DNA of 64,000 bases, from assembly GCA_963664815.2 (NCBI GenBank), contig CAXXHB010000003.1:3648001-3712000 (forward strand), read 5' to 3'. Shown here one piece after another: positions 38,344 to 52,560 of the stretch. The DNA comes from Spirochaetota bacterium. GTDB taxonomy: Bacteria > Spirochaetota > UBA4802 > UBA5550. A program made the position numbers and the translations under genes. The first letter of the stretch is position 1; each line of letters begins with the position of its first letter. A model generated the notes under the pieces. That model did not search any database, was not told where the DNA came from, and saw nothing but the letters and a program-made list of their open reading frames with translations.

Positions 38344-38745
38344 GTCTGGCAGGTCCGGGAGCTCGCAACCCCCTTTCCCCCATAAGAACCTTACGTGAAA
38401 GTTTCTACAACGGGTACTTACTGCGTCCGCCTTCAAACGGCTCAATCCGTCTGAAGCTGATTATACTACCAGCCGCTGTTATCTGCTTTATTCCCATTTT
38501 TCTATAATAGAAATAATCAGAATCTTCTTTTAAAAATGGGTTCCTGTCAAGACTTATCATTCTGTGCCGTACAATTTTAATGTGTCCCGCAGTAATGAGA
38601 ATCTCCTCATCAGAGCAGAAAGTTTAAGTACCGGTTTTTAAGCCATAAAGAATTTTTCATCGGGTGTCTGAATCTGCCCCATCTCCATAGAGCCTGAAAA
38701 AGAACAGTATCGAGTTTTTTAAAGGCTTCTTTTAAAACCATTCCA
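38344..38745 (-). mobile_element. Group II intron 3' remnant, copy 2 (decayed maturase tail + DV/DVI)
   Basis: Homologous to 43791-44215; minus strand has gagccg...ctttcacgtaaggttc and ends cctgccagac. Confidence 0.8.
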
Positions 38746-38994
38746 CGGAGTTTTTGAAATTTTGCATAAAATCGCCATTCACAGTCTATCAGATAACTGT
38801 AGAAATAATTATTTTACGGGATTATTATTTTTTCCGGTAAGATCATCGGATTATTATTGAATGTTATTACAAAGACCGGGAGAAAATGGGATTCAATTCC
38901 TATATATACTGTTCGATCTTAATAGCCCCTTCAAGTATTACCGGATCTGAATCTGATTCAATTCCTATATATACTGTTCGATCCCAGTGGTTTC

Positions 38995-39119
38995 GTCCAA
39001 CAGAGTCTTAACATAGTTGTTGTCTGAAGATTGAAATTATCTGTTCAATGTTTTTATACCGCTAATAAAGATTAGCGGTTTTTTTGAGGCAACTACGTTA
39101 AGACTTCTATAAGTTATGC
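38995..39119 (-). other. attC-like site (family B, 125 bp)
   Basis: Minus strand GCATAAC...GTTGGAC; imperfect arms agagtcttaacatagttg / caactacgttaagacttct. Confidence 0.85.
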
Positions 39120-39146
39120 GAAGGTCTGCCCCCGGTTTTCAATAGC

Positions 39147-39479
39147 TTAATTTCTGATTAATCTTTTTAAGATTATATCTTCGAAATTTCTTCTAGAGTC
39201 AATCATTGAAAGAATATATACTTTTTGTTCTTCTATTCTATAAACTATTCGCCATGGAGTTATAATCAGTTCTCGATAATTACTAATATTATGAAAATCA
39301 AGCTCAGGAACAGTTCTTCCTCGTTCAGGAAAATTTTCTAATTTGATTGTTTGCTTTTTGATTTTTTCAAATATTTCTGCGGCTGTATTCAGACTATCTA
39401 ATGAAATATATTCAATTATTTCAATAAGATCATCTTGTGCAATTTTTGTCCAATATACTGTATATTTTTTTGATGTCAT
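39147..39479 (-). CDS. RelE/ParE family toxin (copy 1)
   Basis: VYWTKIAQDDL...FPERGR.VPE...YRELI..PWRIVYR. Confidence 0.9.
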   Translation of the reverse strand: MTSKKYTVYWTKIAQDDLIEIIEYISLDSLNTAAEIFEKIKKQTIKLENFPERGRTVPELDFHNISNYRELIITPWRIVYRIEEQKVYILSMIDSRRNFEDIILKRLIRN

Positions 39480-39483
39480 ATTC

Positions 39484-39762
39484 TTATCTTTTTTTTAGAA
39501 TTTTATCTTCGATTGCAGAAAAGAATGAATTCTGCTCTGTGAATTTTCCATTTTTTACATCGTTTTCTCCCATGGAAATTAGTTTTAAAATCCCTATCGC
39601 GTTTTGCATTGAATCATAACTTTCTGTATCCATTAATACAGCTTTTGCTTCCCCATTTTGAGTTATGATAATTGGACGATGAGTTTCGTTAACTTGATCA
39701 AGCATGTTTGCAGCATTTGCTTTTACGAAAGAAATGGGGCGTATATCTTGTTTGGTATTCAT
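39484..39762 (-). CDS. Phd/YefM family antitoxin (copy 1)
   Basis: IRPISFVKANAA...PIIITQNGEAKAVL. Confidence 0.9.
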   Translation of the reverse strand: MNTKQDIRPISFVKANAANMLDQVNETHRPIIITQNGEAKAVLMDTESYDSMQNAIGILKLISMGENDVKNGKFTEQNSFFSAIEDKILKKR

Positions 39763-39861
39763 TTTTTTATCCTCTATGGTGTTTCTATTGATCTAAATAT
39801 GGTACTAAATTAAGTTTTAAAGGTCAAGAATAATTTTCTAAAACGACGGGGGCAGACTTTC

Positions 39862-39924
39862 GCATAACGTTAAGAAGAGTATCTTAATCAATCTTCTCCG
39901 ATTGAGATACTCTTCAAGTTGGCC
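39862..39924 (-). other. attC-like site (family C, 63 bp)
   Basis: Minus strand GGCCAAC...GTTATGC; arms gaagagtatctt..atc / gattgagatactcttc. Confidence 0.85.
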
Positions 39925-40068: not shown

Positions 40069-41154
40069 TCATGCAGCTAATGCTGACTCATATTGTTTCA
40101 GCTTTGCAGCATGGTTTTTTTCATCAGTATAGTAATACATTTTATTCTCTTTCAGCATATTATAAATGATAACGATGATCTTGCGCATTACTGCAACACG
40201 AACCTTTCCGGCATTCTTACCTTTCCTTTTTTCAAAATAAAACTTATGAAGCCTGTCACTTGAATCAATGAAATGCTTTATACTCTCTGTCATTAAACTG
40301 GCAGTCAATGTCCTTGACTGTTTATTCACCTTACCGACATGTGCTGTGTTCCCTGATGCATCTATTCGGGGAGCCGTTCTTAAATACGAGCATAGTTTTT
40401 TAGCACTGGGAAATCTGTTAATATCTGCAATATCTGACATTATTGCAATAGCAAGAAAAGGGCTTATCCCGCGAATACTTGTCAGAATCCGTATCTCTCT
40501 GTAAAATATCTTCCCTTTCTTCAGAATTGCTTTCTTTATATTCTCTTTTTCATTTTCAAGAGAATTGAGCGTTGATAGCAGAATATTGATTTGAACTGAA
40601 AATACCTCACTGACAGGCAGACTCCTGATCCTGTCCTGTATGTGGTTGTATGAAAGATTTTCCTTTGAAAATCCGAAAATACCATTCTGACGGAAAAGTG
40701 ACCTGATACGATTCTTTGTCATACATGCCTGTTTCTTGAGCATCTCATACGTTACAAACATGCTTCTCAACTCGCTAACTTCTTTTGACGGAATGTAGAT
40801 TGTCGGAAATTCATCCGATGATTTATCATAGCATACATAATATTTCAATTTCTTTGCCAGTTTAATGGCATCAATCTTATCAGTCTTCTTCCTGGAATTC
40901 GATATTATTGAAAACTTGTAAGGATCTACAACATAGACCTCCTTTACATATTCTTTAACCTGTTCCACAAACCAGAATGTATTGGTTGATGCCTCAACGA
41001 CTATATAATCCTCAATCATCAGTTTACTTAAAAATCTCTTAAATGCTTCTGTTTTTAAACTGACTGTTTCCATTGTCAGTTCGTCCGTTTTTTCCCCTAA
41101 AACTGCTGCTTTAAAACTATCTGTGTGAAGATCTATCCCATAAAACATTGACAA
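40069..41154 (-). CDS. IS110-family transposase/recombinase
   Basis: GIDLH, VVEAS, KTDKIDA (DEDD); RGIS...RF.SAKKL.SY...P...ASG. Confidence 0.93.
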   Translation of the reverse strand: MSMFYGIDLHTDSFKAAVLGEKTDELTMETVSLKTEAFKRFLSKLMIEDYIVVEASTNTFWFVEQVKEYVKEVYVVDPYKFSIISNSRKKTDKIDAIKLAKKLKYYVCYDKSSDEFPTIYIPSKEVSELRSMFVTYEMLKKQACMTKNRIRSLFRQNGIFGFSKENLSYNHIQDRIRSLPVSEVFSVQINILLSTLNSLENEKENIKKAILKKGKIFYREIRILTSIRGISPFLAIAIMSDIADINRFPSAKKLCSYLRTAPRIDASGNTAHVGKVNKQSRTLTASLMTESIKHFIDSSDRLHKFYFEKRKGKNAGKVRVAVMRKIIVIIYNMLKENKMYYYTDEKNHAAKLKQYESALAA

Positions 41155-41450: not shown

Positions 41451-41957
41451 CGACAGAACCGCCTGAGCAACAGCCCGATATAATATTAATGGATTTTAAA
41501 TTACCGGATTTATAATTGCAAGAATAATTCGTATGTAGAAATTTGAATAAATAAACAATTGCATCTTTATAACAACCAATATATCTGCTTTTAAAACACT
41601 GTTAAACGGCATTCCCAAGAATAAATTATCATTATTTCTCAGTTATCAGAATAAAAGTATCCCTTCATGGTCTTTTTATCGTTACCATAATCATAAGATA
41701 TTAATATGCAGATAATAATCTACAACCGCTCTGGTTCGCCGGAGGTGAACGATACCTCACCGGTTCAGGAATCTCTTTTACAATAAGCCTTCCGGTTTTG
41801 CATGTAGGGCAGCATGAAAGATTTTTACCTGTGACGCGCAGATAGATTTCACTCCATGTCTGCGGTATACTTTCATTATTCTTTTGAATTTCGTAAAACT
41901 CGCGGCATGCCTCAACAGCCTTCTTTTTATTCCGGTGAGAGAGAATTCCGAAGTACC
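41451..41957 (-). pseudogene. Truncated copy of the 3' end of the IS91-like transposase cassette (47141-47640)
   Basis: Near-identical sequence including gacagaaccgcctgag and YFGILSHRNKK...RSPP. Confidence 0.9.
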
Positions 41958-41959
41958 AA

Positions 41960-42152
41960 CAGGGCAAACAGTCCTACCCTTTGCCTGATGTTTCCCGGTC
42001 AGCCCCTGGCGGAGCAGGATGAGCTGAGCAAAGAGCTTCCTGAGGATACAGCTTCCCTGTTCTGGAAATATTTCAGGATTGATATAACTCTCTGCAGGGA
42101 GTGCGAAAAGGGACACATTCATTATATCCATGGCCAGTCGACTTACGGTTAG
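41960..42152 (+). pseudogene. Possible C-terminal fragment of a different IS91-type transposase
   Basis: FRIDITLCRECEKGHI resembles the terminal CxxCxxG motif of these transposases. Confidence 0.4.
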
Positions 42153-42405
42153 CTGTTATAAAGAGTATAGCTGTACTTCACAGATTTAAAAAACTGTTTC
42201 ATAGAGAGGATAAGTATGCCCGGAGCTTTTAAAATTTTGCATAAAATCGCCATTCACAGTCTATCAGATAACTGTAGAAATAATTATTTTACGAGTTTAT
42301 TATTTTTTCCGGTAAAATCACCGGATTTTTACTGTATGTTATTTCAAAGATCGGGATAAAACGGTATTCAAATTCCTATATATACTGTTCGATCCCAGTG
42401 GTTTC

Positions 42406-42530
42406 GTCCAACAGAGTCTTAACATAGCTGCTGTCTGAAGATTGAAATTATCTGTTTAATGTTTTTATACCGCTAATAAAGATTAGCGGTTTTTTTAAGG
42501 CAACTACGTTAAGACTTCTATAAGTTATGC
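42406..42530 (-). other. attC-like site (family B)
   Basis: Near-identical to 38995-39119; begins 9 bp after the stop of the 409-aa ORF. Confidence 0.85.
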
Positions 42531-42539
42531 GTAGTGCCA

Positions 42540-43769
42540 TTATCTATGAAAATGACAATAATCTCTATAAGTTAATATTTCACAGGGTTTGCCTTCTATT
42601 TCTCTACTTCTGCAAGGTGCCCCACATTCATGAGGTTGACGGTCAAGAAACCTATTATATAAAGATAATCTGTGTTTGACTTCTTCCTCTGTGAAAATTT
42701 CCTCAATTTGATCATCCTTTGATTTAAATGCTTTAACAATTAAAACCCCGGCTGTAGTCACTGATTGAATTAAATTATCATTTTCATTGTATATAGGTTC
42801 GCATTTATATTCATGCAATTTCGAATAATCTTTTGAATTAATCAATTCAATAATTTCTTTATCGATACCAATAAAATATTTATATTTACCAACATTGCTT
42901 GTAAGTTTTGAAAACAATTGATCAATGTCTTTACTTGAATCTTTAAATTTTATAATATTATCAACGATTAATCTTCTATCAAAGTATTCACCTAAATAAA
43001 CTTTTCCATTTAGTTTATATTTCCCAAAAAATTTATTTGCTTCAATTTTAATTTTTTTCTTTTCACCATTTAATATAGGTTTAATTATTTTATTAAAATT
43101 TCTTGAATCGAGAATATAACTTAATGTTGAAGCGTAATTTTCTAATATTGTAATAGATGGATCACCCTCATCACTATTTATATCTTCAGGTGGATCGTCA
43201 CAGATAAGACAATATGATTTTTTATTATCATTTTGATTTAAAAGATGAAAAATAGTACCATATCTTAAATGAATATTTTTTTTATTTTGCTTTTTACTTA
43301 AGATATCATTTCTCATTGTAGAATTATTTGAACCAACTGTTCCTTTTGTTTCAATTTCATATTTTTTAGAATTAATAGTAACGCTATAGTCTAGATATTT
43401 TCCATCAGTTATTGGGGCAATTTTTTTAATGCGATTTGGATTAATTTTTAATAATTCTATTGAATAGAGTAAACCTACCGCAACTCCGGAACCTTCCGAA
43501 ATCAATTTTTTAACACGATCATCATTCGATAGGTTTATGAGTGAGTTATTTTCAAATTTAATAAAAGTTGAAAATAACGATTCAAATGCTGGCACTTGAC
43601 TTTGAAGATAATCAAAATCAGATTCTTTAATGTGTTTTGGTACTTCCCACATCATCACAGCATAGCGGAATAAATCAATTTTATTTAGTTCAATAGTTGA
43701 TATTGTTTTAAATATCTGAACTTGTTTTGCACTATCATCAATTTTTATTGGTATATTTATTTTATTCAT
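42540..43769 (-). CDS. Cassette protein with a putative PD-(D/E)XK nuclease motif and a C-terminal Cys/His cluster
   Basis: SEGSG...LDY...EIETKG; CGAPC...GKPC...YCHFH. Confidence 0.6.
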   Translation of the reverse strand: MNKINIPIKIDDSAKQVQIFKTISTIELNKIDLFRYAVMMWEVPKHIKESDFDYLQSQVPAFESLFSTFIKFENNSLINLSNDDRVKKLISEGSGVAVGLLYSIELLKINPNRIKKIAPITDGKYLDYSVTINSKKYEIETKGTVGSNNSTMRNDILSKKQNKKNIHLRYGTIFHLLNQNDNKKSYCLICDDPPEDINSDEGDPSITILENYASTLSYILDSRNFNKIIKPILNGEKKKIKIEANKFFGKYKLNGKVYLGEYFDRRLIVDNIIKFKDSSKDIDQLFSKLTSNVGKYKYFIGIDKEIIELINSKDYSKLHEYKCEPIYNENDNLIQSVTTAGVLIVKAFKSKDDQIEEIFTEEEVKHRLSLYNRFLDRQPHECGAPCRSREIEGKPCEILTYRDYCHFHR

Positions 43770-44215: not shown

Positions 44216-44401
44216 CGGAGCTTTTGAGACTTTGCATAAAATCGCCATTCACAGTCTATCAGATAACTGTAGAAATAATTATTTTACTGGATTATTATTT
44301 TTACCGGTAAAAATCACCGGATTATTACTGTATGCTATTTCAAAGATCGGGATAAAACGGTATTCAAATTCCTATATATACTGTTCGATCCCAGTGGTTT
44401 C

Positions 44402-44526
44402 GTCCAACAGAGTCTTAACATAGCTGTTGTCTGAAGATTGAAATTATCTGTTCAATGTTTTTATACCGCTAATAAAGATTAGCGGTTTTTTTGAGGCAAC
44501 TACGTTAAGACTTCTATAAGTTATGC
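44402..44526 (-). other. attC-like site (family B)
   Basis: Near-identical to 38995-39119. Confidence 0.85.
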
Positions 44527-44553
44527 GAAGGTCTGCCCCCGGTTTTCAATAGC

Positions 44554-44886
44554 TTAATTTCTGATTAATCTTTTTAAGATTATATCTTCGAAATTTCTTC
44601 TAGAGTCAATCATTGAAAGAATATATACTTTTTGTTCTTCTATTCTATAAACTATTCGCCATGGAGTTATAATCAGTTCTCGATAATTACTAATATTATG
44701 AAAATCAAGCTCAGGAACAGTTCTTCCTCGTTCAGGAAAATTTTCTAATTTGATTGTTTGCTTTTTGATTTTTTCAAATATTTCTGCGGCTGTATTCAGA
44801 CTATCTAATGAAATATATTCAATTATTTCAATAAGATCATCTTGTGCAATTTTTGTCCAATATACTGTATATTTTTTTGATGTCAT
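44554..44886 (-). CDS. RelE/ParE family toxin (copy 2)
   Basis: Protein identical to 39147-39479. Confidence 0.9.
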   Translation of the reverse strand: MTSKKYTVYWTKIAQDDLIEIIEYISLDSLNTAAEIFEKIKKQTIKLENFPERGRTVPELDFHNISNYRELIITPWRIVYRIEEQKVYILSMIDSRRNFEDIILKRLIRN

Positions 44887-44890
44887 ATTC

Positions 44891-45169
44891 TTATCTTTTT
44901 TTTAGAATTTTATCTTCGATTGCAGAAAAGAATGAATTCTGCTCTGTGAATTTTCCATTTTTTACATCGTTTTCTCCCATGGAAATTAGTTTTAAAATCC
45001 CTATCGCGTTTTGCATTGAATCATAACTTTCTGTATCCATTAATACAGCTTTTGCTTCCCCATTTTGAGTTATGATAATTGGACGATGAGTTTCGTTAAC
45101 TTGATCAAGCATGTTTGCAGCATTTGCTTTTACGAAAGAAATGGGGCGTATATCTTGTTTGGTATTCAT
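44891..45169 (-). CDS. Phd/YefM family antitoxin (copy 2)
   Basis: Protein identical to 39484-39762. Confidence 0.9.
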   Translation of the reverse strand: MNTKQDIRPISFVKANAANMLDQVNETHRPIIITQNGEAKAVLMDTESYDSMQNAIGILKLISMGENDVKNGKFTEQNSFFSAIEDKILKKR

Positions 45170-45268
45170 TTTTTTATCCTCTATGGTGTTTCTATTGATC
45201 TAAATATGGTACTAAATTAAGTTTTAAAGGTCAAGAATAATTTTCTAAAACGACGGGGGCAGACTTTC

Positions 45269-45331
45269 GCATAACGTTAAGAAGAGTATCTTAATCAATC
45301 TTCTCCGATTGAGATACTCTTCAAGTTGGCC
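45269..45331 (-). other. attC-like site (family C)
   Basis: Identical to 39862-39924. Confidence 0.85.
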
Positions 45332-47080: not shown

Positions 47081-47143
47081 GTCTAACGTTAAGAAGAGTA
47101 TCTTAATCAATCTTCTCCGATTGAGATACTCTTCAAGTTGGAC
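47081..47143 (-). other. attC-like site (family C) closing the recombinase/transposase cassette
   Basis: Minus strand GTCCAAC...GTTAGAC; interior identical to 39862-39924. Confidence 0.88.
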
Positions 47144-47385
47144 AGAACCGCCTGAGCAACAGCCCGACACAATATTAATGGATTTTAAATTACCGGATTT
47201 ATAATTGCAAGAATAATTCGTATGTAGAAATTTGAATAAATAAACAATTGCATCTTTATAACAACCAATATATCTGCTTTTAAATTATTGTTAAACGATA
47301 CTTTCCGGAATAAATTATCATTATTTCTCAGTTATCAGAATGAAAGTATCCCTTCATGGTTTTTTATAGTTCCATAATCATAGTA

Positions 47386-48642
47386 TTAATATATAGATAA
47401 TAATCTACAACTGCTCTGGTTCGCCGGAGGTGAACGGTACCGTACCGGTTCAAGAATCTCTTTTACAATAAGCCTTCCGGTTTTGCATGCAGGGCAGCAT
47501 GAAAGATTTTTACCTGTAATACGCAGATAGATTTCACTCCATGTCTGCGGTATACTTTCATTCTTCTTTTGAATTTCGTAAAACTCGCGACATGCCTCAA
47601 CAGCCTTCTTTTTGTTTCTGTGTGATAGAATTCCAAAGTATCTGATGCGGACAAACCTTCTCGGTACAACATGCATTATGAAGCGGCGAATAAAAGACTC
47701 TGCCGGGAGTTCCATGAGCTTTTCCCTGTTCCCGTCAGCGTAATCCCTGTATCTGAATCTTATTATATCATCTTTAACAGAAACTATCCGGTGATTGCTG
47801 ATGGCTATGCGATGAGTATACCTCGCAAGATATTCAATTACACTCTCTTTGCCCTGGAAGGATTCTTTGAGATATACAACCCACTCCGCGGCGAAGAGTG
47901 AATCAATCATTGTCTGAAAATTTATGGCATCAGTGACATGCGTACCTTTAAGATATAATTTTTCTGTTCTATAAAGTTCCTTCAATCCCTGCAGAAAGAG
48001 GCTTCTGAACCGCAGCTTCAGAACCTGCACAGGTACAAAATAGTTATTCGGAGCATGAATCCATCTCTGCTTTTTCTCCGAATAACCTCCGCCCGGAACC
48101 ACACAATGAAGATGGGGATGTAAATTAATCTTCTGCCCCCATGTATGTAGGATGGAAAAGAATCCTATATCAGCGCCGAAGTATTTTTCATCACCGCTGA
48201 CAGAGAGTAGTGTCATTCTGCATACATCAAACATAAGGTCGTAGATAACTCTTTTGTTTCTGATAACAACCGGGTTAAGCATATCTGGAAGTGTGAATAC
48301 AACATGAAAGTAAGTGAACGGGAGAACTTCATTTTTTCTTTCCATAATCCACTTCTCTTTTTTCATCGACTGGCACTGTGGACAATGCCTGTTTCTGCAT
48401 GAGTTGTAGAGAATCACTTTATGGCCGCAGATGCTGCATTCCTCAACTCTTCCGCCGAGGGCTTCTGTCCTGCAGATCTCAATTGAACGCATCACCTTTC
48501 TTTCATGCAAAGAGACTTCGGGATGTTTCAGAAGATAAGACTCATCGTAATTCCGGAATATTTCATTAACGGTTGGCTGATTCATTTTTAAATCTGTCTG
48601 CATAGACATCAAGAGGACTTCGGGCCACGGTCTTCTCTTCAT
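47386..48642 (-). CDS. IS91-family (Y2 HUH) transposase
   Basis: CRT..LGG, YNSCRNRHCPQCQ, YFHVVFTLP, LHTWG...HPHLH, YLARY, RIRYFG; the true start is probably MNQP (~48583). Confidence 0.95.
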   Translation of the reverse strand: MKRRPWPEVLLMSMQTDLKMNQPTVNEIFRNYDESYLLKHPEVSLHERKVMRSIEICRTEALGGRVEECSICGHKVILYNSCRNRHCPQCQSMKKEKWIMERKNEVLPFTYFHVVFTLPDMLNPVVIRNKRVIYDLMFDVCRMTLLSVSGDEKYFGADIGFFSILHTWGQKINLHPHLHCVVPGGGYSEKKQRWIHAPNNYFVPVQVLKLRFRSLFLQGLKELYRTEKLYLKGTHVTDAINFQTMIDSLFAAEWVVYLKESFQGKESVIEYLARYTHRIAISNHRIVSVKDDIIRFRYRDYADGNREKLMELPAESFIRRFIMHVVPRRFVRIRYFGILSHRNKKKAVEACREFYEIQKKNESIPQTWSEIYLRITGKNLSCCPACKTGRLIVKEILEPVRYRSPPANQSSCRLLSIY

Positions 48643-49429
48643 TCAGATGCACATAAACCAGAGTCGTAGTCAGATGTCTGTGTCCCAGAAACTTCTGAAG
48701 TTGAAACACTCCGCTCCCTGTCTCTATCATATGTGTCGCAAAGGAGTGACGCAGTGTATGAATACCGCACTGTTTTGTTATACCGGCTCTCTTCTTCGCG
48801 CGATGATACGCATGCTGTACTGCCCTGATTGACATCTGTTCACCTGGGTATCTTCCGCAAAACAGCCAGTTGTCCGGCCTGTAGGTTTTCCAGTATTGCT
48901 CAAGCTGGATTAAACATATTTCTGAAAGCAGGGTATACCTGTCCCTGCCCCCTTTGGCATCCCGTACTTTAAGACGCATTGAATCCCGTGAGATATCGTC
49001 TACCTTCAGATTTACAAGTTCACCCACTCGGAGACCTGAGGAATACGTGAGCATCAGTATTGTTTTATGTTTCAGATTATCAGCGCTGTGAATAATCCGA
49101 AACACCTCTTCTACCGTAAATACTTCCGGAAGTTTTCTTTTCTTTTTCTGAATGGGAATGTTTTCAACTTCAACGTCTCTGCCGATTGTCTGGATAAAAA
49201 AATAGCATATTGCGCTTCTTGCCTGACGGAATGATGATTCTGATAGTTTCCGGTCTTTGATTAAGTAATACAGGTAGTCTTTTATGGTTTCTTTTGTGAT
49301 CTCCTCCGGCGGTTCCTTGCAGTATTCAAGAAAACTGCTCAAGCTCCGGTAATAGGTGATCTGTGTCCTCAGGCTGTATCCGCGAAGGGCAAGGTCTCTT
49401 TTGTAGCTTTGTAAAATCTGTTCTGACAT
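48566..49429 (-). CDS. Tyrosine recombinase (IntI-related, without the integron-specific insertion)
   Basis: LRGYS.RT..Y SAM-like N-terminus; YSSGLRVGE, AKGGRDR, HTLRHSFATH, LGH...TTLVY. Confidence 0.95.
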   Translation of the reverse strand: MSEQILQSYKRDLALRGYSLRTQITYYRSLSSFLEYCKEPPEEITKETIKDYLYYLIKDRKLSESSFRQARSAICYFFIQTIGRDVEVENIPIQKKKRKLPEVFTVEEVFRIIHSADNLKHKTILMLTYSSGLRVGELVNLKVDDISRDSMRLKVRDAKGGRDRYTLLSEICLIQLEQYWKTYRPDNWLFCGRYPGEQMSIRAVQHAYHRAKKRAGITKQCGIHTLRHSFATHMIETGSGVFQLQKFLGHRHLTTTLVYVHLNEEKTVARSPLDVYADRFKNESANR

Positions 49430-49533
49430 GAAGATTTCCTCCGTTAATTTTGGTTAACGGAAGTTTATCATGGATTGTAATAAAAGTGAAATCTTTCATA
49501 TGGGATAGAAAGCCGCCGCCTTCAGGCGGTTTT

Positions 49534-49634
49534 GTTCAACGCCTTGCTTACACGACGTCGCGGCGTCTTTTTGCCGCGATGTGGCGAAGCCCAAGCGAGG
49601 TACTCCGAGCGCAGCGTTGTAAGCTTTGTTGTGC
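49534..49634 (-). other. attC-like site (family A, 101 bp)
   Basis: Minus strand GCACAAC...GTTGAAC; arms gcttac / gtaagc. Confidence 0.88.
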
Positions 49635-49652: not shown

Positions 49653-51344
49653 TCAAGTTAATGACCACCGAGTATTTCTTGTATTACCTTTTTTTTGAAT
49701 GAATTTTATCTGTGAAAGGAAACTACTTAAACTAGATTTGTTTGAAAATGTTAATATGTCTGATAGTTCATCACTTGAAGCTATATTATATTTTTTTAAA
49801 TATGTATATAGCGAAACATATTTACTTGAGTTTGGTGCGATTTTAGGCTTTTTTGAAATTTTAAAATAATCAAGAAATTCATTACTTACAGAAATAAAAA
49901 TGTCATTCTTATCACCATGTATTACGAAATAATGCTTTAAAATACCTTCTTCTATTGAAGATTTTATGTCTTCCCATGGATTTAACGAAATTTTCATCAT
50001 TTCTTTTTCCAGGTCTTTACATGAAATAGTACCTTTAAGTGAGACTTTATTTAATATGAATAATTCACTCAATTTAAACTTATCAATATTATTTGTTGTT
50101 ATTACAAAGATTTGTGGGATACAATATTCAGTAACCATTGAGACTTCTATTGAATCATTATTTTCACAAAAAATCGGAAAACTTCGTCCATAGATCAATG
50201 ATCCAATTCCCATTCTTAAAACACCCATTCCTGCTCTATCAACAAGATTAAAGAGCATTAAACATTTTGCTAATTCTTTATTTCTATGACGTGGATCATG
50301 AAATGCAATATTAGATTCATTTACACCACCATAAAAATTCCCTGGATTTGTTATTTTTATACCATTTGATGTGAAAATAATTGATATTAATCCATTGATT
50401 GAATAATCTCGATGAACAATAGCATTTAATAATGCTTCATGAAAAGCTTTTTCATCTAACGCAGGGCAATTATATTTATTGTCATTGAATTCTATTTGTA
50501 ATATTTTATTATATTCGCTAAATTTATTTTTAATAATTTTTATTGAATTCCAAATATTATCGCTCCAAATATAGTTTTGAAGTAACTCACCTTGATTGGA
50601 TTTATAACTAAAACGAAATTCATAATCACCTAGGTGTTGTTTTATTTGATCTTTATGGCCGAACATCAACACTGCTGTTTTTGTAACAACACCATTTTTC
50701 GTTGCATTAATTGCTTCCAAAAAGTCAATATTACTAATATCCGTATTAAGATTTCTTCTAAATATAAAATCTTTTTTTGCTTCAATTAATGTTTCCTGAT
50801 TTAATTCTTCAATTTTTATATGATCAATCTCATCAGCACTCCAATCATATGTCTGAAGATTCTTTACAGCAGATTCTATTTCGTATGGCTCCATAGGTCT
50901 GCTGCTTTTACCATCTCTAATGTATACTTTACCACTTGTAGTTGTTACTAGTACGTGGTTTATTTTAGGAACATCAATAACCACATAACGGATAAGTTTA
51001 TGAAAATGATAATAAATTTTAAAATCAATTTTCGGCTTTATTCTTCCTCTTAATCTTTCGGATGTAACGTCAAAATCAATTTCTTGAAATCCATTTAATT
51101 GCTTTTCTATTAAAGCTAAATCATTTTTATCGTTATCGATTACTCCAATGATTATTTTACCACCAAATTTATTAGCAAGAGCTACAAATTCGTTTGCTAA
51201 TTCCTTGTCATTATTCAAGGCATTAATATCTTTATAATTTTTGAATTCAATAGTTTCCGATTCAACAGATTGACTTGGTTCTTTTTCAAGTTTTAAAAAT
51301 ATTTGATCAATTGTTTTTATACTCATAATATCCTCAATTATCAA
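49653..51344 (-). CDS. AlbA_2 (Schlafen-like) + HATPase_c_4 domain protein
   Basis: ESETIEFK, VALANKFGG.IIIGV.D, HEALLNAIVHRDY, NPG, RNKELA, VDRAGMG. Confidence 0.88.
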   Translation of the reverse strand: MIIEDIMSIKTIDQIFLKLEKEPSQSVESETIEFKNYKDINALNNDKELANEFVALANKFGGKIIIGVIDNDKNDLALIEKQLNGFQEIDFDVTSERLRGRIKPKIDFKIYYHFHKLIRYVVIDVPKINHVLVTTTSGKVYIRDGKSSRPMEPYEIESAVKNLQTYDWSADEIDHIKIEELNQETLIEAKKDFIFRRNLNTDISNIDFLEAINATKNGVVTKTAVLMFGHKDQIKQHLGDYEFRFSYKSNQGELLQNYIWSDNIWNSIKIIKNKFSEYNKILQIEFNDNKYNCPALDEKAFHEALLNAIVHRDYSINGLISIIFTSNGIKITNPGNFYGGVNESNIAFHDPRHRNKELAKCLMLFNLVDRAGMGVLRMGIGSLIYGRSFPIFCENNDSIEVSMVTEYCIPQIFVITTNNIDKFKLSELFILNKVSLKGTISCKDLEKEMMKISLNPWEDIKSSIEEGILKHYFVIHGDKNDIFISVSNEFLDYFKISKKPKIAPNSSKYVSLYTYLKKYNIASSDELSDILTFSNKSSLSSFLSQIKFIQKKGNTRNTRWSLT

Positions 51345-51430: not shown

Positions 51431-52114
51431 CCCTATATCTCCAGTGGACTCTTAATATTCCCGGATTTCCCCGTACATACATGTGTATAAATCATAATTG
51501 TATCAGGACTTTACCGTCCTGATAGTTCCTGTATTCTTCGTTACTCTGTTCAGGCAGTTGTGTAGTAAATTTATCCCTTGATGAGTTATCTTTAACCGTT
51601 TTCCATTCCGTCATTTACAACATTCCGTTGAAACCAGTCCGCACAAATATCCCCCGTTGCTACTCCCCTTCTCCTGATCTTTTAATAAACGGTTTCCATG
51701 ATGATCCCTGCAGGATGGGGCTGTATGCATTTAATTTATTCACTCATTAAACAGCAGTTATTTCAATACTTTTTTTCAAATATTCAAATAAATATCCGGC
51801 TTGTTTCAAGATTGGCATTTGCAGCCCTCAGGAAACCTTGAGTGTGTTTTATTAAGGGGCTTCGCCCCTTATACCCTGTAAAAAAGTTGTCTCTTTTTTA
51901 TAAAGAACGTTAATTACTTTGTTGAATTGGCTGCTTTGCAATAAAAACATATGATGTGTTATATGCACAAATTGTGCCGAAAACTGCTGTACACTGCAGT
52001 GATTATACCCAATCTGTCGCCATGTATATGCCGTTTATCCGCCACGAATCCGCCATCTATCCGGCGAAGTAACATCAGAATTTTTTTGCTTTTTCAGTAA
52101 ATTTTTTAAATTCC

Positions 52115-52560
52115 CCGGTTTCTTAAACCACACCGCTCCCCGGGTGTTTCCAGTGAAACTGGAAATGTATCAAGGGGACCACTATAGGAAAACTGTTTTC
52201 TTAAAACTTATTAATATTATCAATATACCAGGATTAATTCATGGACAGCTCCTCCCGGTTTCTTAAACCACACCGCTCCCCGAGTGTTTCCAGTGAAACT
52301 GGAAATGTATTGAGGGGATCACTACAGGATTAAAAGTCCTGCAGGATTTCCTGCAGAGTGAACAGACATTGGTTCATGTGCTCTTTGTTGATCTCTTTGA
52401 TGCTGTCCGTAATGTAATATTATCGATATGCCAGTGTCAGCTCCGGAACCACCTTTTCCGGTTTCTTAAACCACACCGTTCCCCGAGTGTTTCCAGTAAA
52501 ACTGGAAATGTATCGAGGGGACCACTATAGGATTAAGATCTCTGCAGGATTTTCTGCAGA
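52115..52560. repeat. Three ~75-bp hairpin-containing direct repeats (52115, 52255, 52458)
   Basis: ccggtttcttaaaccacaccg.tccccg.gtgtttccagt.aaactggaaatgtat..agggga.cacta.agga; copies 2 and 3 share ~28 bp more. Confidence 0.9.

Follow-up and report, generated by a model that had tools for sequence, protein, structure and literature searches.

A recombinase-carrying IS91-family element with its own attC-like terminal hairpin in a spirochaete cassette array

Organization of the module

The window analysed here is a 64,000-nt stretch of a Spirochaetota genome (G000:C3:3648001-3712000, G000 being the host genome), and the subject of this report is a two-gene module within it, at 47081-49540, that pairs a tyrosine recombinase (YR) with a transposase of the IS91 family of insertion sequences (ISs). 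All features of the element lie on the minus strand. A first-pass annotation of the same DNA had described a module at this position that starts at a GTT, ends in the complementary sequence and brings its own 63-bp attC; read directly from the minus strand, all of this is as described.

The upstream end is formed by the 7-mer G|TTGAAC (49534-49540), which fits the consensus GTTRRRY and belongs both to the left inverted repeat of the element and to the R' box of the host hairpin upstream. It was placed from the sequence, from the start of homology with a relative in another organism (L037) and from relatives that start N|TTGnAC. Inside the left inverted repeat, which has the 12-nt arm AAAACCGCCTGA, lies a terIS-like subterminal palindrome, CCGCC-TGAA-GGCGG (49512-49533). 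The YR open reading frame (ORF; 48566-49429, 287 amino acids (aa)) matches Phage_integrase and SAM_4, and is overlapped for 77 nt by the start of the ORF for an IS91-family HUH Y2 transposase (47386-48642, 418 aa; NF033538, Y2_Tnp and Zn_Tnp_IS91). A 242-nt non-coding region follows on the oriIS side (47144-47385); it terminates in the right inverted repeat arm TCAGGCGGTTCT, has truncated copies elsewhere in the genome, and contains a CCATAG-type motif that is conserved in relatives.

The right 7-mer, GTCCAAC (47137-47143), fits RYYYAAC and serves both as the tip of the right repeat and as the 5' foot of an attC-like imperfect hairpin of 63 nt (47081-47143, GTCCAAC...GTTAGAC), which was recognised from its sequence, its fold and comparison with relatives. 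In order, the hairpin consists of the 7-mer, 2 nt, an 11-bp stem, the loop, the returning stem, a TTAAC spacer and G|TTAGAC, and its DNA fold has an energy of -12.8 kcal/mol. Inverse core sites RYYYAAC (R'') and GTTRRRY (R') thus surround an imperfect palindrome, as GTCCAAC...GTTAGAC in the present arrangement and with GTTGAAC once the ends are joined. Within the right 7-mer, truncated copies and solo hairpins break at GT(C)|(C)AAC. As far as anatomy goes, the module therefore has the distinct ends with subterminal palindromes of an IS91 element, CCGCC-TGAA-GGCGG upstream and the hairpin downstream. Read as reverse complements, the upstream end (49522-49540) is GTTGAACAAAACCGCCTGA and the downstream end (47137-47155) is TCAGGCGGTTCTGTCCAAC; the two form an inverted repeat in which 13/14 positions match within the 7-mers. 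A role of the hairpin as terminator of the transposase gene was rejected, as no T-run follows it and it lies 245 nt beyond the stop codon.

The mobile unit, of 2453 bp, begins at G|TTGAAC (49539) and ends at hairpin-TTAAC-G| (47087). It is inserted precisely at the G|TT in the R' box of a resident cassette's attC-like hairpin; a crossover is proposed between 49540 and 49539. The resident hairpin (49534-49634, minus strand), of a long type with R''/R'-type boxes as judged by fold and sequence, belongs to an upstream Schlafen/AlbA_2 cassette.

Transposase and recombinase

The transposase scores 429.5 bits against the IS91 profile NF033538 (cut-off 125) and contains both PF14319 and PF04986. It has the N-terminal zinc-binding domain, the HUH motif and the two catalytic tyrosines of the family, and H177/H179 (HUH) as well as Y271/Y275 are invariant in the 12 relatives compared.

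In the YR, the catalytic residues R134, K159, H224, R227, H250 and Y259 are all present and invariant among relatives. Its best NCBIfam match is the XerA/'integron integrase' model, with 206 bits against a cut-off of 220, and with the IntI model TIGR02249 it reaches 164.6 bits against a cut-off of 265. The latter match comes in two pieces (profile positions 1-179 and 237-313, with ~16 aa between them), meaning that the IntI insertion is missing. The nearest solved structures by sequence are XerA (4a8e, 120.8 bits; 5hxy, 105.5 bits), followed by IntI4 (2a3v, 96.1 bits in two stretches) and XerD (71.5 bits). A tree of 51 YR sequences, which has a single Xer outgroup on a long branch and supports clades, not their order, gathers the 27 IS-linked YRs in a clade of their own (97/97), apart from the 11 IntI sequences of the phylum (100/99); a further clade (98/97) comprises 12 array-linked proteins of ~357 aa. 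The tree and the missing insertion agree with the available text of a preprint that assigns the YRs of IS91 elements to an 'integron-like' subgroup, grouped with IntI and without the IntI insertion (bioRxiv 10.1101/542381). We conclude that the YR belongs with IntI's closest relatives but is not IntI; a true IntI was ruled out by the missing insertion, the score below the family cut-off and the separate clade. The phylogenetic tie to IntI on which the first-pass annotation had proposed a check is borne out at the level of the group, while the IS-linked enzymes stand as a clade apart.

Conservation of the ends among relatives

Relatives were drawn from a phylum sample of 401 genomes, 20 of which carry one at E <= 1e-40, and from a metagenome scan, in which at least 588 relatives were found among the 599 matched stretches listed; the best 80 of these were kept for analysis. 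A search of genome contigs for related loci gave a single relative, L037, which comes from another organism and shares 83% aa and 82% nucleotide identity. The YR gene lies directly upstream of the transposase gene and co-oriented with it at 15/21 phylum loci, the other six being two cut by contig ends, three transposase fragments and one (L051) whose 505 upstream nt have no match. Among the metagenome loci, the best 80 of at least 588, it lies directly upstream in 71; of the remaining nine, six have no room for it, two have YR remnants and one has none. The earlier statement that some IS91 elements carry an upstream tyrosine recombinase holds widely here.

Comparison of close copies defines the unit. 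Homology between the module and L037 spans 49541 to 47084; it begins with the left 7-mer, takes in the entire hairpin and stops at GTTA. Likewise, the sequences of two copies in genome G095 (L041 and L058) part immediately past ...GTTA, and those of two near-identical metagenome copies (L097 and L098) immediately past ...CTT, which gives G|TT-type boundaries at the ends of the unit. Because relatives share sequence through the hairpin and diverge after it, the hairpin is part of the mobile unit, which is bounded N|TT...N|TT.

The distal end has the same order in all readable relatives: ...GCGGyTyn-GTnCAAn, 0-3 nt, stem, variable loop, stem, spacer and N|TT. A strict regular expression located the right arm in 25/80 loci, and by eye a hairpin follows it in 25/25; an automatic fold-based search found the hairpin in 37/98 loci. 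When 34 loci were picked solely by a definable inverted-repeat pair, the hairpin was present in 29 (23 found automatically and six from the minimum free energy structure), with four others cut by a contig end and one ambiguous. The 37 hairpins of the automatic search fold far better than shuffled sequences (mean z -5.0, a value biased by the choice of this set by energy). Their stem sequences are unrelated between sub-lineages, with complementarity kept. The 5' spacer measures 0-3 nt in 37/37 and the 3' spacer 5-8 nt in 27/37 or 3-4 nt in 10/37; the distal box has TT at positions 2-3 in 37/37, as it must by construction of the search. The left end of relatives reads N|TTGnAC and then AAACCGC-TTCG-GCGGT; between TTGnAC and GTnCAA the variable bases are complementary in 30/34 loci, and in 27/34 the first N of the left end is complementary to the final base of the right 7-mer.

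This end architecture is beyond chance, since it recurs in relatives from other genomes and folds better than shuffles. A YR-carrying copy on a Clostridium estertheticum plasmid, outside arrays, has the hairpin module, and an IS1294-like tandem and an IS91 copy on plasmids of the E. coli group (24-27% aa identity) have, by eye, no such module past the CCTATAC ori motif. In these comparisons the terminal hairpin is confined to the YR-carrying IS91 elements, and the layout is a family-wide end design of that clade, not a special packaging. Accordingly, of the cassette-like packaging first described, the G|TT at both ends and the attC-like hairpin stand, and what falls is the notion that they were acquired as packaging, the design being intrinsic to the clade and found outside arrays too.

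Folding of the joined ends and insertion sites

In silico joining of the ends of the window element gives a bottom strand that forms a single extended hairpin (-28.4 kcal/mol), with a 19-bp duplex made of the two arms and the 7-mers, a small number of unpaired bases, and the 63-nt stem-loop beyond them. Across the family, the ends would on joining form a duplex of 15-19 bp that encloses the hairpin, with an unpaired spacer of 5-7 nt next to N|TT. Spacer plus N amount to 6-8 nt on one strand beside N|TT, the size of a recombinase central region, and the bottom-strand boundary is AA|N within the RYYYAAC box. IntI cuts attC at AA|N of this box. As modelled, the joined ends would, once folded, mimic a recombinase core site.

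On the target side, the pre-insertion site was rebuilt for 21 loci with both flanks, with 8-nt arms and a centre of 3-8 nt. Arm complementarity averages 5.14/8, compared with 4.45 in mismatched left/right pairs (permutation p = 0.0008), and at least 7/8 arm positions match in 4/21 loci versus 1.9% of mismatched pairs. Clean dif-like targets are GTCGTGAAA-ACAGAC-TTTCACGAC on the Clostridium plasmid, CCGCATAA-AACGGA-TTATGC (L114) and CGGCATAA-TACCGG-TTATGTCG (L046). The rebuilt site of the window element, an ordinary cassette junction (long hairpin ...AAGGC-G|TTAGAC...), scores 7/8.

By eye, 2-9 nt are identical at both junctions, which could reflect a shared core instead of a duplication. Six loci whose right 7-mer ends in A (L160, L124, L139, L145, L141 and L159) have the same CGT|TT at both junctions, an identity of 3-5 nt, for which a shared crossover core or a short duplication is possible. 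Simple attC scans were uninformative: one returned many false matches and missed known copies, and another gave 188 matches, compared with 149-192 in shuffles.

Decayed copies in the host genome

A BLAST search of the genome with the module returned one full copy and nine fragments of its transposase-distal end; no other intact copy occurs in this genome, the rest being decayed. Three of the ten right-repeat copies abut the 63-nt hairpin at the identical nucleotide, and four module copies share the same internal end point. The 63-nt hairpin itself occurs 11 times, with the IS arm in three cases, a common other 5' flank (..AAAAAAGCC-GGCCAAC) in five and another 5' arm in three.

Several of these remnants lie in the window. 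A truncated second ori-side end (41452-41955, minus strand), comprising the transposase C-terminus, the non-coding region and the right repeat, is 92-94% identical to the module and has a different flank. A solo 63-nt hairpin without the IS lies at 39860-39922 (minus strand) and has a twin at 45267-45329; the two are 100% identical to each other and 97% identical to the hairpin of the element. In addition, an ori-end remnant of a second YR-IS91 type, with the motif TTCCTATA, the right repeat AGTGGTTTCGTCCAAC and a 98-nt hairpin, was recognised at 38940-39112 (plus strand) by alignment with L056. Further remnants of this type are at 42351-42523 and 44347-44519, on the strand opposite to the element, and the remnants are homologous to the element end in L056 (79% mean column identity). 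As a separate observation, a 117-aa ORF at 41778-42131 (minus strand) is chimeric, an unrelated 59-aa N-terminus standing in frame with the last 58 aa of an IS91 transposase, and its fusion point recurs in four genomic copies.

The surrounding array and its resident recombinase

The module lies in an array that extends from ~22 kb to 53 kb of the window, in which the ORFs run mostly on the minus strand, with hairpins that have RYYYAAC/GTTRRRY-type boxes between them. Its contents are typical of chromosomal arrays, with two ParE/Phd pairs, a Schlafen/AlbA_2 protein, an IS110-family transposase and a group II intron domain. No match to the IntI model over the cut-off occurs in the genome (three contigs, 96.2% complete), and the same holds for 17/20 phylum host genomes of relatives, this one included, in line with the earlier expectation that hosts would lack intI.

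A different recombinase accompanies hairpin arrays in the genus. The long-type hairpin occurs 41 times in genus genome G061, 32 of them in one stretch of ~96 kb and 30 of those on one strand. At the upstream end of this stretch, co-oriented with it, lies a gene for a 356-aa YR (L021 1108-2178), which is 57% identical to a 357-aa YR outside the window in the host genome (G000:C3:1972136-1973209). Long-type hairpins are found within ~2 kb downstream of the 356-357-aa YR, co-oriented, in G000, G057, G061, G062 and G063, and six of the seven genus genomes have full-length orthologues. This ~357-aa YR passes NF040815 (235 versus 220) and fails TIGR02249 (220.7 versus 265); it has no IntI insertion and carries an N-terminal extension of ~85 aa. 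Together, the ~357-aa YR and the hairpin arrays look like an IntI-independent, integron-like platform. By eye, the resident long-type hairpins resemble the IS hairpins in having a short 5' and a long 3' spacer.

Other features of the array are recorded here in their own right. Directly upstream of the module, the cassette at 49653-51344 (minus strand) encodes a 563-aa Schlafen protein with AlbA_2 and HATPase_c_4, a defence-like domain pair. The ParE/Phd pair is bracketed by 31-nt inverted repeats of the TTATGCGAAgGTCTGCCCCCG type (39104-39877 and 44511-45284); these begin at the distal G|TT of a hairpin, two hairpins face each other, and the entire block is duplicated. The IS110-family transposase (40069-41154, minus strand; DEDD_Tnp_IS110 and Transposase_20) adjoins the solo 63-nt hairpin; some IS110/IS1111 relatives target attC. 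The group II intron domain RF00029 (43791-43891, minus strand) is the sole match in Rfam, a collection without an attC family, with 40.2 bits at a gathering cut-off of 40 bits. Beside it lies a 409-aa ORF (42540-43769) without a Pfam match, and its flanking repeat has a second copy at 38425-38501. Finally, three tandem units of ~146 nt, 61-100% identical and with an internal hairpin, occupy 52072-52560 at the upstream edge of the array region.

Discussion

The module is, with high confidence, a member of a YR-carrying clade of the IS91 family, and what had been called its 63-bp attC is its own conserved ori-side terminal hairpin. The first-pass annotation had favoured an engine serving an integron and had named, as an alternative, an IS91 that mimics attC; this alternative comes closest to the data. 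Of the expectation that homologues would be bounded by attC at both ends, the distal half stands (29/34) and the upstream half does not, the upstream flanks not being attC-like hairpins in general. Since the homologues keep the hairpin, they are not mostly devoid of attC-like association, which was the outcome set down beforehand as speaking against the proposal.

How such an element would move is a matter of two enzymes in the explanation that we favour. The HUH transposase would excise one strand by rolling-circle replication, as IS91 does, to give a single-stranded circle. Folding of the circle junction would produce a structure that mimics a tyrosine-recombinase core site, with an R-box duplex, a 'central' strand of 6-8 nt and an L-box duplex. 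The IntI-related YR would then exchange one strand, at AA|N of the bottom strand, with a double-stranded target of the dif-like or attC-R' kind, and replication would complete the integration. If the YR does exchange strands at attC-R' sites, an attC-like array would be a natural landing pad, and the element would come to look like a cassette. The break points of the decayed copies suggest that both kinds of cut occur, one defining an inner HUH-defined core (49537-47141) and one defining the outer unit with the hairpin. Taken as a whole, identity of the element and two-enzyme mechanism together, we consider this statement probable, if only just.

A number of observations weigh against this mechanism. 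First, in the host genome, 7/10 right-repeat copies adjoin another conserved flank and break at GTC|, and 8/11 hairpin copies stand without the IS. Therefore, cutting takes place at the proximal 7-mer too, which is not predicted by the YR model. Second, the palindrome signal of the targets is carried by ~6/21 loci. In the upstream flanks of relatives the foot of a hairpin is not enriched, with a mean best stem of 6.0 against 6.08 in controls and a stem of at least 8 bp in 2/16 relatives against 12.7% of controls. Third, the unpaired bases occupy the arm opposite to the one that carries them in IntI-linked attCs of the related genome G030, where, by eye, the 5' arm of three attCs is longer by 1-2 nt; the IS hairpins do not have the extrahelical bases on the R''-L'' arm that mark attC. 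Fourth, Logan contigs of four sequencing runs (X1, X3, X5 and X6, of six listed) contain no circle junction or empty site, their loose ends at 47141 and 47640 being other genomic copies. Nor was an empty site found among the genus genomes, in which the downstream cassette had no real match and the upstream query matched via its hairpin alone. Fifth, the boundary of the unit is resolved only to 1-3 nt, and the anatomy also fits transposition by the HUH enzyme alone: the hairpin is followed by NTT[N] (NTT[A/G/C/T]), and the GTnC type occurs in both repeat tips, as GTTG and GTTC on the plus strand.

The strongest competitor is accordingly a plain IS91 element, in which the hairpin is the subterminal palindrome of oriIS, NTTR is the target, and the HUH enzyme alone cuts, circularises and inserts. 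In that case the YR would be an accessory, for example in regulation, in precise termination as with Orf121 of IS91, or in the resolution of dimers or cointegrates. The available text of a family description (PMC13181058), with its ori and ter palindromes, GTTC/CTTG target and overlapping upstream ORF, fits, and the YR holds just that upstream overlapping position. The distal box has TT at positions 2-3 throughout (37/37, by construction of the search), GTTC at 49534-49537 and GTTG at 47137-47140 on the plus strand flank the core like a ter site and a target, and truncated copies break at GTTG|GAC. However, a nick at the tip of the right repeat would leave the hairpin behind, and the hairpin co-travels in every available comparison. 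The targets are palindromic over ~20 bp, not 4 bp, the 7-mers agree with the core consensus of integrons and continue into complementary ends of 15-19 bp, and the IS91 and IS1294 copies compared have no hairpin module. We judge this reading somewhat unlikely, while giving it serious weight.

A broader view goes beyond the two-enzyme mechanism and treats YR-carrying IS91 elements as self-mobilising 'proto-cassettes'. The HUH enzyme would make the single strand, and a sister of IntI, the YR, would integrate the folded attC-like junction at G|TT. The genus arrays would be run, independently of IntI and with hairpins of the same geometry, by a third sister recombinase of ~357 aa. Were the IS core lost after IS91-type read-through past terIS, 'gene plus hairpin' would remain, and cassettes and attC sites would thereby be born. 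As a joint claim this is speculative and, in our estimation, unlikely.

We are more doubtful still about the integron engine originally put forward, in which the YR acts on the attC sites of the array while the HUH protein supplies single strands or mobilises adjacent cassettes for an array without IntI. The lack of an IntI match in a genome that is 96.2% complete, the presence of the same 63-nt hairpin at eight other sites without the IS, the three ori-end remnants that a second YR-IS91 type left in the same array, and the likeness by eye in spacer geometry between resident long-type and IS hairpins would all suit it. Set against these are the single intact copy among decayed ones, the occurrence of the clade outside arrays, and the 356-357-aa YR, which is syntenic with the genus arrays, belongs to a separate clade and is the more obvious array recombinase. 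The service to neighbouring cassettes has thus no direct support, and the genus arrays are linked to that different, resident clade.

Least probable is an IS91 that targets attC, in the manner of the IS1111-attC elements and the group IIC introns, with the hairpin as host attC and the IS inserted inside its R'' box (GTT|CAAC): 3/10 right-repeat copies do meet the 63-nt family at the same nucleotide, an IS110-family transposase and a group II intron domain are also present in the array, and hairpin type is not strictly congruent with transposase similarity (the L040 hairpin resembles that of the window at 55% aa identity, and that of L039 differs at 72%), but the empty site would need a zero-length 'cassette', a long hairpin fused to the 63-nt hairpin, the hairpins are present in 29/34 relatives from very different hosts and GC contents, the Clostridium plasmid included, and copies share sequence through the complete hairpin.

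Integron biology has two old gaps, namely the origin of attC sites and cassettes, and how IntI came to prefer folded single-stranded DNA. The present clade of IS91 joins three properties: single-stranded DNA by design, a recombinase of the group closest to IntI, and ends that rebuild the integron core consensus around a hairpin. The question of integron ancestry is therefore testable with simple genetics, and the clade may help explain the origin of integron gene cassettes. Should the proto-cassette view be true, it would provide a concrete route for the birth of new cassettes and attC sites. Should the HUH enzyme act alone, the outcome would be more modest, namely ends and a target for an IS91 clade of which little has been described, together with a warning that attC finders will call the oriIS hairpins of YR-carrying IS91 elements. 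According to the available text of one report, the same gene pair lies beside tetX and catB in Flavobacteriia (PMC11194056); as the pair adjoins resistance genes, knowing which enzyme defines the unit would improve the annotation of resistance contexts.

Relation to known systems

The IS91 family, as set out in the available text of its description, has one or two subterminal palindromes at ori and one subterminal ter palindrome next to the cleavage site, an accessory ORF that lies upstream of tnpA and overlaps it, and, next to oriIS, a target (5'-GTTC/CTTG) whose second position is T; in IS91, only the bottom-strand single-stranded circle inserts (PMC13181058). The module resembles IS91, IS801, IS1294 and ISCR in its transposase (NF033538/Y2_Tnp/Zn_Tnp_IS91, with HUH and two tyrosines), in its two different ends with subterminal palindromes, in the accessory ORF over the transposase start, in the GTnC-type tetranucleotides at its tips and in its decayed ori-end fragments. 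It differs in sharing 24-27% aa identity with the copies of the E. coli group, in having a YR gene in place of Orf121, in the inverted repeats of 15-19 bp with integron-type 7-mers at its ends, and in the extra hairpin of 45-130 nt plus a spacer of 5-7 nt past the right repeat.

With other YR-carrying IS91 elements, a widespread clade, it shares the same gene pair in the same order. PGAP names the YR of relatives 'site-specific tyrosine recombinase/integron integrase', and ISfinder is said to note an upstream 'phage integrase' ORF in some IS91 members. The part available of a report on Chryseobacterium describes a 'tetX-catB11-IS91-XerD' cluster (PMC11194056). In the papers covered by full-text searches we found no description of a family-wide terminal hairpin, complementary integron-type 7-mers, an N|TT boundary or palindromic targets. 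The gene pair is already known, and the end architecture and targets were not found described. A further source, in its available text, mentions an attC call next to ISCR28 without data (PMC12772301); that IS91-like element, with an attC-like site on or abutting its ori side, is similar, and in that text no YR is reported for it.

Like integron cassettes and attC sites, the module has RYYYAAC and GTTRRRY boxes, G|TT boundaries, a position inside a cassette array, an imperfect hairpin conserved in structure and variable in sequence, and a recombinase of the IntI-related group. Unlike them, the 'cassette' encodes its own mobility genes, its R box reaches 15-19 bp, its YR is without the IntI insertion (164.6 versus 265 bits) and in a separate clade, and the unpaired bases are on the other arm.

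In CTX-phage, folded single-stranded DNA mimics dif and is integrated by Xer through the exchange of a single strand, and the bottom strands of attC sites act likewise. The logic proposed here would be similar, with a single strand from rolling-circle replication, a folded mimic of a core site, a double-stranded dif-like target and resolution by replication. Unlike CTX-phage, the element is not a phage, and it brings both its own YR and its own HUH enzyme.

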